A stretch of 64,000 nt of DNA from Bacteroidota bacterium (lineage in GTDB: Bacteria > Bacteroidota > Bacteroidia > Palsa-948). Under the pieces are notes generated by a model. The model was not told where the DNA came from. It did no database searches and worked only from the letters and a program-made list of their open reading frames with translations. The translations under genes and the position numbers were made by a program. The DNA is taken from NCBI GenBank assembly GCA_016213405.1, contig JACRAM010000057.1, positions 27,773 to 91,772 on the forward strand. The letters are read 5' to 3'. Below, piece by piece: positions 3,101 to 19,134 of the stretch (the first letter of the stretch is position 1; each line of letters opens with the position of its first letter).

Positions 3101-6100
3101 ACAATGATAAGGTATATAAAGTATTGGTAGGCGCTGCCGGTTGTGTTAATGTTACACTCAGCAATACCAGTTCCACCTCTATCGGTTTTCAGGTTTATAA
3201 TGGCTGCCCGGATGTGAGCGGAAGCACCTGCATATTTAATTCTACCACCGGCACCATTGGCGGATTTCTTACTGCCGATATTAACATTCCTTCAGCCGGA
3301 TACTATTATGTTATTGTAGACAGTTGGTCGGTTCCGGGTGATTATGTAAATTATGATATTACCATCAGCGCACCAGGCGGAAATACAGCTAACGACCCTT
3401 GCAGCGGAGCCATACCCTTAACGCTTGGCGTGAGCGCAAATGGAGACAACACCTGCACCAACGCTATGGGTGAGCCGGTAGCCCCCGCCTGCTGGACAAC
3501 CGGAGCGATGAATACAATTTGGTACAGAGTTACTATACCTGCATCCAGAGACCTTGTCATAAAAACCACTGCCGGTTCATTATTGAAAACACAAATTGAT
3601 GTCTATAGAGGCAATTCCTGTGCTGGACTAACCTATGTTGACTGTAATCAGGATGCGGCATCCTGCGGAACACAATACGACCATTCTTATTTAAATCTTC
3701 AGAATATTGGCGCAGGCACTTATGCCTATATAAGAGTAGATGGCGAGGATAATCTCGTTGGTACTTTCTCCATTCTGGTTATTGATGGAAACAATATAGC
3801 CCTTCCTGTATTGCCTCCTGTAGTAGGTCAGGATTGCGGACCGGTTCTAACATATACAAATCCTATTTGCGGTCAAACCACCACGGTTGCCAATCCCGGT
3901 AATTTTGCATTCGGCAATATCTGTGATTTTACCGGCACCGGAATATGTCTTGCCAGCGGAGAAAAAAGTTCTACATGGTACACCATCAACATCAATGCAA
4001 ACGGAACTCTTGCATTTGATATTGTTCCCAATGATTATGGCAACCCGAACCCACTGACCGGACAATCCAATCCGGGGTATATCTCGCCTGGCGATGAAAC
4101 CGACTACGATTGGTCATTATGGAGATGGTCAGCCGCTTGTAATGGCACAGGTGATGGCACATGGTGTTGTACCGAAATTGCTGCTGCAACTGCTCCCTCT
4201 ACGCCCACTCGATGCAATTATAGTTATCTCGGAGTAACCGGACTGTATACAACAACAGGAACAGCCCCGCCTGCTTATGCGGGATTTGGTGGCGCATATG
4301 AAGCAAATTTAGCAGTCACCAATGGAGAAATTTATGTTCTTGCCGTCAGCAACTATGCGAATGATTATGTTTCAGGATACACACTAAAATTCAGCGGCAC
4401 TTCGCCCATTGCCTATTCTACACCGGGTTCCACCATGACTTGGGGAAGCAGCACAAGCAACGCGTGGGTTCAGGCAGGAAATTGGGGAGGATGCGGTCCG
4501 CCTAACTGCGGGATAAATGCCATCATTGCTTCAGGAGGAGCTCAGCCCATAATCAGTTCAAATGTAAACGTTCAGAATATTACTATCAATGCCGGAGCAA
4601 CTCTGATGATTAACCCAAACTGCACGCTGACTGTTTGCGGTGACTTTATCAATAACGGAACGCTTACGATGGCATCTACCGCAACACTGCTTTTTAATAA
4701 TGGCGCTGTTGTGCAGAACATCAGCGGCTCATTGACCGGAGCAAATAAAATCGGAAATCTTGTTATTAATAAAACAGGCGGCAGCCTTATACTGGCAGCA
4801 GCAACACCTCTTGACATAGGAGGAAATTTTGTAACTCAAAATACGACCAGTGTTTTCAATGGCAATAATAATGTGATAAAAATTGCCGGCAACTTCAGCA
4901 CGGCATCAAACGTAACCGTTACGAATTTCCCCAATGTTGAATTTAACGGAACCATTCCTCAAACGTATACCAACAGTGCCGGAACTATAACCTGGACCAA
5001 TGTTACTATGAATAATTCGGGCGGAGGAATGACATTGACAGGAACCGCCACCAGCAACTTAGTGATTGCAGGAATATTAACCTTAACCAATGGAATTATT
5101 TATACTGCCAATCCTCCATTATTAATAATGAATGCCGGCTCTTCAGTTCCTTCGCCCTACGGAAGTATTATAAGTTTTGTTGACGGACCGATGCAGAAAA
5201 TCGGAGCCACCGCTTTTGTATTTCCTGTTGGTGATGCTTTCAACCGTTGGGCAAGAATAGCGATTTCTGCCCCAACAGCTGCTTCCACTTTTCAGGCGCA
5301 ATATTTTTTCACGCCTTATACAAATATTACTTCTATGTGCGCTGCACCTCTTCCGGTGCTGAATAATGTAAGCGGATTTGAATATTGGCAACTTGACAGA
5401 CCTGCAGGCACAGGAAACGCAGCGGTTACTTTATATTGGGAAAATGCTGCCAGCAGTGGGATAAACAGTTGCACAGGCACTCCGGGTGATTTAGTAGTTG
5501 GGCGTTTCACGGGTGCTTGCTGGGAAAATAAAAATCTAGCAGCCGTTAATCCTTACACAGGTTCTTGCGCTGGTACTGCAGCAGGAACAGTAACTTCTGA
5601 TGTTGTTACTGCTTTCAGTCCTTTTACTTTTAGTTCAAAATCACCGGGAGTCAACCCGCTTCCTGCTGAACTTTTATCCTTCACAGGAAAAAGTAATGGG
5701 GAAGAAAATATTCTTGAATGGGTAACTGCTTCTGAAAGAAACAACGATTATTTTACGCTGGAACGCGGAACGGATGGATTTAACTTTGAAAAACTTGCAG
5801 TAGTGGATGGAGCGGGCAACAGCAGTACCACAAAGCATTATCAATCCATAGACAAAGAACCTTTTATCGGCATTAATTATTACCGGCTGAAGCAAACTGA
5901 TTTTGATGGTTCAGTAAAATACGCTGCAAATATTATTGTGATTGATTTCAAACAAGCGCCTCATTATCTGTTTTACCCTAACCCTGCAAATAATGAAATA
6001 ATGGTTTACACCACATCCTTGCAGGAAGAAAATATCGCCATTGATATAGCAGATGTTTTTGGAAGAAAAATGATGCAGCAAAAACAACTGACTGTGAAAG

Positions 6101-15853: not shown

Positions 15854-16772
15854 GGAGATTCACATCCTGAGTGAGGTCGCCTCCTTCGGGAATGTTAAGG
15901 GCTTTGGTGTCGGTGACGAATAATGGTTTTGCAAATTCCATATTGCCGGGTCCCACAAAACCGGTTACAAGTTCAAAGTCGCCATTGGCATCGGTTACTG
16001 CGCTTTCGTTGGTTTCAACCAGGCGCGCGCTCATTCCTGCAAGGGCGGCTGCGGTAACGGCATGGCGCCCTTTTCCGCGGATGGTTGTTTTCACAGTGCT
16101 GACATACACCAATCCCCATTCGCGGGCTTTGTTGCGCTTGCTGGTGATGGGTTCTTCATTAAAAAATGTTTCCACTTCGTCCCAAACTTTCAAAATTATT
16201 TTGTCGGCTTCTTCGCGCTGGTCTTCCACATCTTCCTGCGCGCTGTCATAATTATTTTTTGCCGTGCTCTGCGCAATGTTGGCATTCTTGAAGGCGTTGT
16301 ATTCAAAAGTTACTTCAGCAATAGTGGGCATCGCCATGGGCGCTCCGCCTGCGGCAATGCGCGCGGCATCTCCGTCAATCAATCGCTGCCACCACTGGGT
16401 GAGCAGGGGTTCGGTGCTGATGTCAGGGACGCTGTTTGAGTTCACATCCAACTGGTAAAATGCGCGGTGCGATGGGGGAAACATTCCTCTATCCACTCCA
16501 TTATTAAATGCCTGAATGAAATGCGATACGAACATGCGCGCTCTTGCCTGAGCGGTTTCTTTCACCGTGGTGGAATCGGTTTGCGCCTGAAGTTTGTTTG
16601 CCCGCGCCTGCATCAGCGATGAAAACAGCGGCTGCATGGCATCCAACCGTGTGATAGTGTTTGGAGTAATGGCGATGTTAGCCGGTGCGGTGTTGTCTTT
16701 TTTGGTTTTTGCTCCGCTCAGGGCGATGTTGCGCTTTTCGTCTGAGTCGGGAAGTTTTCTTGTTATGCTCAT
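15840..16772 (-). CDS. Hypothetical protein encoded by a GC-rich (~55% versus ~35% background) gene. The C-terminus resembles a carboxypeptidase-regulatory-like (CarbopepD_reg/Cna-B-like) beta-sandwich.
   Basis: Base composition is strikingly different from its neighbours. C-terminal VTDANGDFELVTGFVGPGNMEFAKP pattern. No signal peptide detected. Confidence 0.45.
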   Translation of the reverse strand: MSITRKLPDSDEKRNIALSGAKTKKDNTAPANIAITPNTITRLDAMQPLFSSLMQARANKLQAQTDSTTVKETAQARARMFVSHFIQAFNNGVDRGMFPPSHRAFYQLDVNSNSVPDISTEPLLTQWWQRLIDGDAARIAAGGAPMAMPTIAEVTFEYNAFKNANIAQSTAKNNYDSAQEDVEDQREEADKIILKVWDEVETFFNEEPITSKRNKAREWGLVYVSTVKTTIRGKGRHAVTAAALAGMSARLVETNESAVTDANGDFELVTGFVGPGNMEFAKPLFVTDTKALNIPEGGDLTQDVNLQPVG

Positions 16773-16826
16773 TGTGATTGATTATTGGTTATTGTTTAGT
16801 GATTATTTATTATTAGTTGTTTTTTT

Positions 16827-17121
16827 GCCTCTCGCATTTGTGCGATACTATGTTTTAAACTTTTTTACGCCTCTCGCATTTATGCGAACTAATGTTTCAA
16901 TCTTTTTTATACCTGTCGCATTTGTGCGAACTCATATTTTGAACTTTTTTATGCCCCTCTCATTTATACGAACCCATGTTTCAAACTTTTTTCTCCCTCT
17001 CGTATTTGTGCGAACCCATACTTCAAACTTTTTTCTACCCTTCGGATTTGTGAAAACCCATCTTTCAAACTTTGTTTTGCCCTTCGGATTTGCGCGAACC
17101 CATGCTTTAAACTTTTTTATG
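16827..17121. repeat. Seven head-to-tail tandem 42-bp repeats (units 42,42,42,42,43,42,42 bp), each with a palindromic core TCGCATTTGTGCGA. Repeats degenerate toward 17121.
   Basis: Direct reading: GCCTCTCGCATTTGTGCGATACTATGTTTTAAACTTTTTTAC / GCCTCTCGCATTTATGCGAACTAATGTTTCAATCTTTTTTAT / ACCTGTCGCATTTGTGCGAACTCATATTTTGAACTTTTTTAT / ... It lies upstream of the start of 15840..16772 (-) and downstream of the XRE gene stop. Confidence 0.9.
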
Positions 17122-17133
17122 CTCATTGTATTC

Positions 17134-17370
17134 TTAATTTATATCCATTAATATTCTGAGCGGAACACCCAATGCTTTTGCAATATCACGCACATACAAA
17201 AAACCAGGATTTACTACCCCGCGTTCTAACCGCTGTATGCTCGACTTGTCTCTATTCATTTCATAGGCAAGTTTCTCCTGGCTGTAACCCAATTGCCTTC
17301 TAATCCATTTAATCCTTGCTATAAGTTTCAGCAAATCGGCATCTATATATATGTGAGAACTTTTTGGCAT
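17134..17370 (-). CDS. XRE-family helix-turn-helix transcriptional regulator (78 aa)
   Basis: HTH_XRE signature LGYSQEKLAYEMNRDKSSIQRLERG. Confidence 0.75.
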   Translation of the reverse strand: MPKSSHIYIDADLLKLIARIKWIRRQLGYSQEKLAYEMNRDKSSIQRLERGVVNPGFLYVRDIAKALGVPLRILMDIN

Positions 17371-17654
17371 TGCTAATATCGGTTATAGTTATTAAAGGAT
17401 GGGCAACACATTTGTTGTCGGGTAGTTTGTATGATGACCTATTTTTATTTTCATACAACAAATGTAAGTCGGCTTATCCGGCAATAAAAACGGATTTGAA
17501 CTAAAAGAAATTAAAAACCAAATGGAATCTTGCAAAAGCTTGCCCGAAACTGTAAAACGAAATCACTTTTTGCATTTTTCGCCAATGCATAATTGATAAA
17601 AATCATATCTTGCAAAACATTTCTAATGAAATAATTACAATTCGATAAACTAAA

Positions 17655-18702: not shown

Positions 18703-19134
18703 TTACTTCTTTTTCTTCTTCGCTGTTGGTTTTTTAGCCGCAGTTTTTTTTGCCACAGGAGCCTTCTTCGCTACAGGTTTGCTAACTTTCTTTGCCGGGC
18801 TTTTCTCTTTTTTCTTAGTTGCTTTTGTTTCGGTATGGACTGGTGCTTCTCCGAAGGAGTCCTTATGGACAACCGCAGAGACTGTTTCTGCAACAACCGG
18901 TTTAACCACTTCAACTGCAGGAGTAACTACTTCTGCTACTTGCGGTTTAACTGCTTCAACAACCGGCTTTTTCACGATTTGTTCAGCGGCTATTTTCGGC
19001 AGGTCTTTCAACACTTTTACCTTACGAACCGGAGCAGCCGGGCGAATACCTTTGCTTTTTTTGCGAGGACGGCTAACTCCTGTAGTGCCTCTCCATATTT
19101 TTCCTCTTTTGGTGCGGATATCTCCTTTTCCCAT
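18703..19134 (-). CDS. Ribosomal protein THX (bTHX) homologue fused to a Lys/Ala/Pro-rich histone H1-like tail
   Basis: N-terminus [26 protein letters not shown] closely matches Thermus Thx ([25 protein letters not shown]). C-terminal tail ...[36 protein letters not shown]. Confidence 0.6.
   Translation of the reverse strand: [143 protein letters not shown]

Follow-up and report, generated by a model that had tools for sequence, protein, structure and literature searches.

The window, a 64,000-nucleotide stretch of a Bacteroidota bacterium genome (contig JACRAM010000057.1), contains a tandem array of 42-bp units directly upstream of a gene coding for an uncharacterised protein of 310 residues. 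In these units a moderately conserved asymmetric segment is combined with a short dyad that has arms of 5–7 bp and a 4-bp centre. On its other side the array abuts a gene for an XRE-family helix-turn-helix (HTH) protein. The array is the local copy of an undescribed cis element that belongs to the family of the downstream gene and not to the XRE gene, since almost every member of that family has a 42-bp array just upstream. Across the array-bearing loci, the element is linked to the gene, keeps an invariant period, carries dyads that change in a compensatory manner, differs in copy number by steps of 42 bp, and is found in either orientation with no conserved neighbour.

The linkage between array and gene was followed in 153 homologous loci, on all of which Tandem Repeats Finder (TRF) was run; the relatives come from uncultured genomes throughout, and their loci are designated below by L and a number. 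Within 1.2 kb upstream of the homologous genes, period 42 accounted for 97 TRF rows, period 84 for 19, period 126 for 13, and period 43 for one, whereas the remaining ~0.9 Mb of flanks yielded a single row of period 42. An array of 2–14 copies is located 5′ of the gene in 78 of the 84 loci whose upstream sequence spans 500 nt or more, a set from which an array-less Paludibacter clade was left out. In four of the six loci lacking a TRF array the best lag of upstream self-similarity is again 42, corresponding to a decayed signal. The arrays are always found 5′ of the gene, at a median distance of 106 nt from the ATG. In the Paludibacter clade (L034–L084, e.g., L069 3992–4696), the homologue consists of the N-terminal domain alone (234 residues), is not accompanied by an array, and shows no shift in the GC content of the gene. 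Thus, the array, the C-terminal immunoglobulin (Ig)-like domain, and a shift in codon usage, both described below, co-occur in the other clade. The synteny of the Paludibacter loci is conserved, with a polyprenyl synthase gene ending 46 nt before the homologue. Outside that clade no conserved neighbour gene is present beside the arrays, and the module comprising array and gene is found in unrelated genomic contexts, with several copies in some genomes. Pairs from the same genome include L018/L020, L021/L025, and L026/L027, as well as P0086/P0093 on one 688-kb contig; the units of L026 and L027 are nearly the same, so paralogous arrays are not always distinct. Searches of phage, plasmid, and IMG/VR collections returned no member of the protein family, and an origin of the module from a mobile element, phage, or plasmid was rejected on the lack of matches in them.

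Of all repeats in the 64 kb, the array is the strongest by a wide margin (TRF: 16820–17122, period 42, 7.2 copies, 78% matches, 0% indels, score 319), which confirms the seven units of 42 bp recognised in an earlier sequence-only reading. The unit of 43 bp that was also listed there is absent, all seven units stacking in a 42-bp register. On the gene strand a unit consists of GGCAUAAAAAAGUUUGAAACAUGGGU, followed by a stem (UCGCA), the centre CAAA, the complementary stem (UGCGA), and GA. The palindrome TCGCA-N4-TGCGA, ascribed earlier to each unit, is perfect in only three of the seven (starts 16832, 16874, and 16916), with a fourth (17000) containing one mismatch. It had been described correctly that the units are best preserved at the 16827 end, next to the gene, and decay distally, the dyad being degenerate in the distal three; in the arrays taken together, the polarity of unit decay is not significant (19 vs 14). 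The array also proved specific to its locus within the window, where a scan for the dyad returned only one further match, at chance level and with one mismatch, and a covariance model of the unit (R1) matched these seven units only. As proposed, the array reaches the stop codon of the XRE gene, but it does not fill the entire gap, since an A-rich leader of 48–57 nt separates it from the ATG. The leader starts as a partial unit (GGCAAAAAAAC) and has A at positions −3, −6, −11, −13, and −14. Its part between 16777 and 16814 is A/C/T-rich with a 7-nt periodicity (TRF period 7, 5.4 copies), and some of the homologous leaders (L104, L123, L101) carry runs like (CCTAAAT)n directly before the start codon. 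The spacers between array and ATG are A-rich and G-poor in 63 of 77 loci.

The sequence of the units varies greatly among loci, and most unit consensuses cannot be aligned with each other, yet the period is 42 throughout. The likeness of units within an array is 78–98% in the stacked arrays, with TRF matches falling to 68% in the most decayed ones, and indels amount to 0–3% at 78–94% matches in the four arrays with such figures. No sub-periodicity of 21 bp is present. In the relatives of the window locus the unit again consists of GGCAUAAAAAAGUUUGAAACAUGGGU, followed by a stem of 5–7 bp with a 4-nt centre, but only the flank is conserved, while the stem differs from locus to locus (TCGCA/TGCGA, CCTGCT/AGCAGG, CATCCT/AGGATG, CTTACG/CGTAAG, CTGCG/CGCAG, CTTCCA/TGGAAG, TCTGCA/TGCAGA), at 60–85% identity of the proteins encoded next to the first six of these dyads. 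When 82 units are aligned by covariance model, the paired cells amount to 89.3% vs 65.1% in shuffles, and cells with double changes number 121 vs 40.7 expected, values reached in none of 500 shuffles, although the alignment was fitted to the model and the units of one array are not independent. All six pairs show double changes, and controls with the stem slid out of place pair in at most 54% of cells. Of the 78 distinct unit consensuses, 67% contain a perfect stem of 5 bp or more, compared with 21% of shuffles, and 37 of these 52 stems enclose a 4-nt centre; in about one third of the consensuses the perfect stem is only 3–4 bp long. The sequence of the dyad is free to change provided that its arms stay complementary. 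A bias towards a pyrimidine-rich 5′ arm (37 vs 7) is real, but, being a property of either strand of a palindrome, it gives no indication of which strand is functional.

Copy number differs by whole units. The window has seven of them and its 85%-identical relative L085 only two, whereas loci L123 and L125, 99.9% identical across the gene, are offset by exactly 42 bp, i.e., one unit. In turn, four independent assemblies of one locus all contain 7.6 copies.

The orientation of the asymmetric unit relative to the gene is not fixed. Model R1 matches eleven units of L103 only on the strand opposite to the gene, and an all-against-all signed comparison of unit consensuses yields one component of 34 arrays (54 of 55 edges consistent), of which 21 are oriented as in the window and 13 are flipped. 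Nine arrays added by nhmmer bring these numbers to 25 and 18, respectively; the calls rest on similarities of 42 nt, cover 43 of the 78 arrays, and were treated as unreliable for L018 and L022/L023, where they are ambiguous. GC skew on the gene strand agrees with this division (median +0.24 in window-like arrays vs −0.165 in flipped ones). No divergent family gene was found that would explain the flipped arrays. Orientation largely tracks the phylogeny of the protein, with the nearest neighbour being oriented in the same way in 38 of 43 cases; there have been a few old inversions, and both orientations are maintained at the same 42-bp period. Window-like arrays may lie only 38–48 nt from the ATG, whereas flipped ones are never closer than 70 nt, and the mRNA-sense leaders of the latter are C/U-rich instead of A/G-rich.

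The 310-residue product of the downstream gene has an identical counterpart, annotated as hypothetical, in a Bacteroidetes metagenome-assembled genome, and more than 180 close homologues; its 225 N-terminal residues alone retrieve 709 cluster representatives. According to AlphaFold (pLDDT 92–93), the protein comprises a novel helical N-domain (residues 1–225), built on two helices of ~55 residues, and a C-terminal sandwich similar to transthyretin and CarboxypepD_reg. The N-domain has no significant match in the PDB or in the library of viral structures BFVD and belongs to no family in Pfam, NCBIfam, PHROGs, or PADLOC; the array flags an uncharacterised family for which neither a Pfam model nor a fold match of the N-domain is available. 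A defence system was rejected, as the protein has no PADLOC match, and reading the N-terminal ‘RRLP’ strand-helix as a ribbon-helix-helix motif finds no Pfam support even at E ≤ 10. The proteins of the family are acidic (median pI 5.0), contain no cysteine, and fall into length classes of ~235, 310, 400, and 470 residues, which indicate the presence of 0–3 C-terminal domains.

The gene had been considered foreign, at about 55% GC in a genome of about 35%. Its GC content is in fact 51.4% in a window of 40.1%, although it is indeed the most GC-rich open reading frame (ORF), the others covering 29%–48%. The GC content of the gene exceeds that of its flanks in all 62 of the array-bearing loci compared (median +7.6 points), at a flanking GC of 31–60%. 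In the window the shift is from T to C at third codon positions (C3 34% vs 21%, T3 19% vs 33%), with GAA (100%) and AAA (82%) retained. Since it occurs whatever the GC content of the host and leaves GAA and AAA in place, we infer that it reflects codon selection together with an Ala/Thr-rich composition rather than import. The codon bias, as well as the A at positions −3 and −6, suggests a high level of expression; proteins of this family, which comes with a built-in genetic handle, are probably abundant in the cell.

We tentatively favour a reading in which the array is a phased platform of double-stranded DNA upstream of the promoter, over an RNA made of the repeats or a structured leader. 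Forty-two bp equal 4 × 10.5 bp, that is, four turns of the DNA helix, and units of exactly this length would all face the same side of it. The array would thus be read as DNA and bound by a protein, with its in-phase units together forming a multi-site platform, immediately 5′ of the core promoter, on which an architectural factor or one that recognises dyads would act. Such a platform would set the transcription of the apparently highly expressed gene, with the number of units, which changes in whole 42-bp steps, acting as a rheostat. This reading fits better than a cis-acting RNA because the period stays at exactly four turns of the helix without variation, and because the asymmetric sequence of the unit is kept in either orientation to the gene. 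It fits better also because, within arrays, G:U wobbles do not clearly exceed A:C mismatches (43 vs 69 on the gene strand; 23 vs 10 in the unit sense, becoming 7 vs 7 with the outermost pair excluded). Finally, stable tetraloops of the GNRA or UNCG type are not enriched (1 of 37 centres, with 5 of 37 being self-complementary), and the whole array of the window, folded as sense-strand RNA, is not more stable than its shuffles (z = +0.55). Additionally, the median distance of 106 nt to the ATG leaves room for short-leader promoters, in which the −7 box would lie 11–44 nt before the ATG.

Several observations, however, weigh against a DNA platform. The dyads differ between relatives and covary strongly, and a DNA reading would need a dedicated binder that rapidly co-evolves with them. 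Covarying stems beside conserved flanks are a classic signature of single-stranded structure, and a sequence-specific operator in double-stranded DNA is argued against by this covariation. The spacing of 42 bp between dyads is also too wide for small dimers to touch directly. Conserved DNA-binding proteins are lacking near the arrays, and the adjacent protein, with its pI of ~5, shows no DNA-binding fold that could be recognised. The gap between array and ATG is 38–48 nt in the window, L002, and L100, leaving little or no room for a promoter, and in the window and L002 a co-oriented upstream gene ends 0–14 nt before the array. In loci with so little promoter room the array is probably transcribed. 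A scan for the exact motif found no canonical −7 box in the spacers. The earlier proposal of iterated dyads bound by a protein stands as one of two live readings, weakened by the differences in the dyad between close relatives.

The closest known counterpart on the DNA side is sopC of the F plasmid, with 12 direct repeats of 43 bp, each containing a 16-bp inverted repeat bound by SopB (PMC3177203). Both elements consist of tandem units of about four turns with one short inverted repeat in each, beside the gene of the presumed partner, and sopC functions independently of the direction of transcription. In contrast to sopC, the element described here is not located on a plasmid and is not accompanied by ParA/ParB genes, its inverted repeat is not conserved between relatives, it lies upstream of its gene and not downstream of an operon, and no DNA-binding fold, ParB-like or other, is present in the adjacent protein.

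A more doubtful alternative, although one that accounts directly for the covariation, is that the array encodes an RNA. A unit-sense transcript, either started at a promoter of its own or shared with the gene, would carry stem-loop units bound by a protein with a fixed footprint, in the simplest case the one encoded next to the array, as beads on a string or as a processed ribonucleoprotein in the manner of ToxI-ToxN or of RNA sponges. Stems free to covary beside conserved unpaired sequence would be natural in such an RNA, a strict unit length would follow from the footprint, and the protein is indeed the sole conserved genetic partner of the array. The presence of the module in unrelated contexts and in several copies per genome is likewise consistent with it. 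An independently transcribed RNA gene would tolerate inversion relative to its neighbour, and the distance of at least 70 nt between flipped arrays and the ATG, compared to 38–48 nt for window-like ones, looks as if the genes beside flipped arrays needed a promoter of their own. On the other hand, no clear wobble bias is seen among all pairs or inner pairs, no promoter motif is found at either end of the array, the acidic protein has no RNA-binding match in Pfam, NCBIfam, PHROGs, PADLOC, PDB, or BFVD, and a unit length equal to four turns of DNA is left without explanation. In Rfam 15, neither the window nor 20 loci have a match at the gathering threshold, with nothing relevant over the array at E ≤ 10, and a known RNA family was rejected on this basis.

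The precedent for such an RNA is provided by type III toxin-antitoxin systems (toxIN, cptIN, tenpIN; Blower et al. 2012), in which 1.9–5.6 copies of repeats of 31–62 nt precede the partner gene; these systems are defined by upstream tandem repeats, a short palindromic terminator, an endoribonuclease toxin of ~45–290 residues, and a repeat RNA whose processed units neutralise the toxin (PMC3401426). They share with the element described here a short-repeat array directly upstream of a single protein gene, repeats that diverge fast within a persistent architecture, and varied contexts, often with several copies per genome. They differ from it in several respects. A terminator (hairpin and T-run) between array and gene is present in only 3 of the 78 loci described here, and the gene strand of the window lacks one. 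The protein, acidic, helical, and Ig-like, with 310 residues, is unlike ToxN, AbiQ, CptN, and TenpN. The period is invariant at 42 whereas it is variable within type III families, the arrays contain up to 14 copies and may face either way, and no member of the family was found in the plasmid, phage, and viral collections searched. In turn, sponges of the CsrB/RsmZ type and the cis-regulatory motifs of Rfam resemble the arrays in their iterated small stem-loops, conserved unpaired sequence, and compensatory changes of stems. A strict 42-nt period with near-identical units is, however, not a property of sponges or leaders, and the arrays, unlike them, match no Rfam family, are not fixed in orientation to the gene (25 vs 18), and show neither enrichment of stable tetraloops nor a clear wobble bias. 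A sponge of the Shine-Dalgarno type was rejected, since neither strand is richer than the other in GGAG, GAGG, and AGGA.

We can also speculate, with low confidence, that the module represents a new two-part system, in which the novel coiled-coil/Ig-like protein is paired with a length-locked 42-nt repeat that is read unit by unit. The reader would be the protein itself or a dedicated factor, and the repeat would be read as processed hairpin RNAs, in a ribonucleoprotein not related to ToxIN or CRISPR, or as a DNA scaffold phased at four turns. Array and protein would then co-evolve as a cassette across Bacteroidota, Ignavibacteriota, and Kapaibacteria.

It is unlikely that the array acts as a structured 5′ leader, whose many small hairpins would make the mRNA more stable or adjust its translation and which in the window would form the intercistronic part of an XRE-array-gene transcript. 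Long leaders do likewise for other abundant structural proteins. The evidence on transcription is in part favourable to such a role. The consensus of the canonical Bacteroidetes −7 box and the rules for adenines upstream of start codons (PMC6847099) served as the reference, promoters being sought by an exact-motif scan. In this organism TAnnTTTG is present at 1.5 per kb upstream of genes vs 0.42 per kb overall, mostly 11–44 nt before the ATG. No −7 box was found within 200 nt upstream of the gene in the window; the nearest one on the gene strand lies 96 nt upstream of the ATG of the XRE gene and is a candidate promoter of an XRE-array-gene transcript. Since this box is the putative promoter box of the XRE gene, and since no minus-strand terminator separates the XRE gene, the array, and the downstream gene, the array of the window is probably co-transcribed with the XRE gene. 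In the window and L002, neither side of the array offers space for a promoter or terminator, the last partial unit continues into a leader that is A-rich and G-poor with favourable A at −3 and −6, the codon bias suggests high expression, and palindromic hairpins would survive inversion. What a leader does not explain is the invariant period of 42 nt, as well as the conservation of an asymmetric sequence in flipped arrays, whose leaders are C/U-rich. The array RNA of the window is also not unusually stable, and in about a third of the consensuses the perfect stems measure only 3–4 bp. No enrichment of exact −7 boxes is seen across the loci, whether before, within, or after the arrays.

A contingency switch, in which unstable unit number or inversion of the whole array between dyads would grade the expression of a surface or structural protein, is very unlikely. 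The proposal that repeat number varies was correct as far as relatives are concerned, as seen in the exact one-unit difference between the nearly identical L123 and L125, in the range of 2 to 14 copies, and in the existence of both orientations, to which a C-terminal domain that varies and is present in 0–3 copies may be added. An instability- or inversion-based switch is nevertheless poorly supported, because orientation follows the protein phylogeny, so that inversion is rare, no convincing inverted repeats flank the array of the window as they would an invertible element, the four assemblies agree in copy number, and neither the fixed period nor the dyads would be explained.

The original proposal, that of an operator array for the adjacent XRE repressor, is barely credible and has been largely refuted by comparative data: adjacency and co-orientation in the window and L085, together with a dyad geometry of 5-N4-5 that suits an HTH dimer, speak for it, whereas an XRE homologue is found beside the array only in L085, the closest relative, among ~150 homologous loci in which the arrays persist, L085 itself combines an XRE gene of 76% identity with only two units and an imperfect dyad, and a better candidate site is present in the XRE gene's own promoter region. 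In the latter region, the intergenic space between the divergent XRE and BetR-like HTH genes (17371–17654), a perfect 11-nt inverted repeat, ACATTTGTTGT/ACAACAAATGT, is located at 17408–17418/17455–17465, with the second arm overlapping the −7 box TACATTTG (17459–17466), and two direct repeats of ATCTTGCAAAA are found at 17527–17539 and 17607–17617. These inverted and direct repeats are likelier candidate operators for the XRE or HTH protein than the 42-bp array.

Other assignments were considered and rejected. The sequence-only reading had taken the array to be non-coding, free of spacers, distinct from CRISPR, and in a regulatory position, and these features all hold. CRISPR arrays also consist of palindrome-containing direct repeats beside a protein gene, in either orientation, but the units here are contiguous and lack unique spacers, and no Cas domains are present among eight neighbouring ORFs scanned against Pfam. 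A coding repeat of 14 residues was rejected on the basis of arrays with stops in all six frames (L013, L026, L005, L022, L032, L048). In the window the stops number 4, 1, and 0 in the frames of the gene strand and 7, 8, and 2 in those of the + strand, leaving one frame open; these counts place the open frame on the gene strand, whereas the ORF list places it on the + strand, where ORF 16594–17151 spans the array and the units contain no in-frame stop. In either case the open frame does not rescue a coding role, because the six other arrays close every frame. As the period equals 14 codons, the arrays create long spurious ORFs, such as 16594–17151 (+) and 16932–17126 (−) in the window, and in public records ORFs of arrays are annotated as genes of 96 and 116 residues (L002 1765–2055 and L003 4437–4787, respectively). 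A terminator function was rejected for lack of T-runs next to the stems, and a sigma-54 promoter (−24/−12) in the GGCA...TTTGC segment was rejected by eye, the spacing being wrong. Tandem promoters within the units were rejected as well, since AAAGTTTG has a G where the −7 box excludes it (PMC6847099), is not conserved, and would point away from the gene in flipped arrays.

Promoters of Bacteroidota are unusual, and initiation in them is not led by Shine-Dalgarno sequences; to our knowledge, few cis elements of this phylum have been described. The array would provide Bacteroidota with a defined, testable element of gene control. A strict ruler of 42 units, kept through near-complete turnover of the sequence in ~80 independent arrays, is a rare case of natural selection on repeat length, and it allows DNA phasing and RNA structure to be told apart experimentally. 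Many of the homologues lie on contigs of 1–2 kb, and the arrays therefore probably break short-read assemblies. The features of the window are collected in Table 1.

Table 1. Positions of the array, its units, and the adjoining features in the window.
Feature	Position	Strand	Basis
Conserved partner gene, 310 residues	15840–16772	−	Homology, domain scans, AlphaFold
A-rich, G-poor leader, last unit to ATG	16773–16829	−	Sequence, TRF
Tandem array of 42-bp units	16820–17122	−	TRF, stacked units, covariance model
Unit 1, gene-proximal, perfect dyad TCGCATTTGTGCGA at 16832–16845 (+ strand)	16830–16871	−	cmsearch, 37.5 bits
Unit 2, perfect dyad at 16874–16887	16872–16913	−	cmsearch, 31.0 bits
Unit 3, perfect dyad at 16916–16929	16914–16955	−	cmsearch, 37.3 bits
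Unit 4, dyad broken (TCTCATTTATACGA)	16956–16997	−	cmsearch, 34.4 bits
Unit 5, one-mismatch dyad at 17000–17013	16998–17039	−	cmsearch, 30.8 bits
Unit 6, degenerate	17040–17081	−	cmsearch, 25.1 bits
Unit 7, distal, degenerate, abuts XRE stop codon	17082–17123	−	cmsearch, 27.3 bits
XRE-family HTH gene, 78 residues, Pfam HTH_3, co-oriented, lineage-specific neighbour	17134–17370	−	Pfam
Nearest gene-strand −7 box TACATTTG, 96 nt upstream of XRE ATG	17459–17466	−	Motif scan

Some additional features were observed around the arrays of individual loci. In L093 an insertion of ~170 bp resembling a miniature inverted-repeat transposable element (~2755–2925), with a long inverted repeat, lies between the array and the conserved leader. 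Longer-period repeats are present in two loci, upstream of the 42-bp array or between it and the gene (L048, −1056 to −512, and L138, −505 to −121; periods of 126 bp in 4.3 copies and 194 bp in 2 copies). Genes resembling response regulators, with a receiver domain recognised by eye, lie just upstream of several flipped arrays (L103 1788–2216, L012 2452–3204, L101 1532–2272). Outside the arrays, DUF805b RNA motifs of Rfam are found near the gene, just downstream of the homologous gene in L007 (2762–2797, 4986–5021, 5322–5357) and L103 (4117–4151), and a Flavo-1 RNA at 5443–5525 of L027 is likewise not part of the array. In the window itself, ORF 18703–19134 (−) encodes a ribosomal protein Thx domain (residues 1–26) fused to a Lys/Ala/Pro/Val-rich tail of ~117 residues, which is an unusually long extension.

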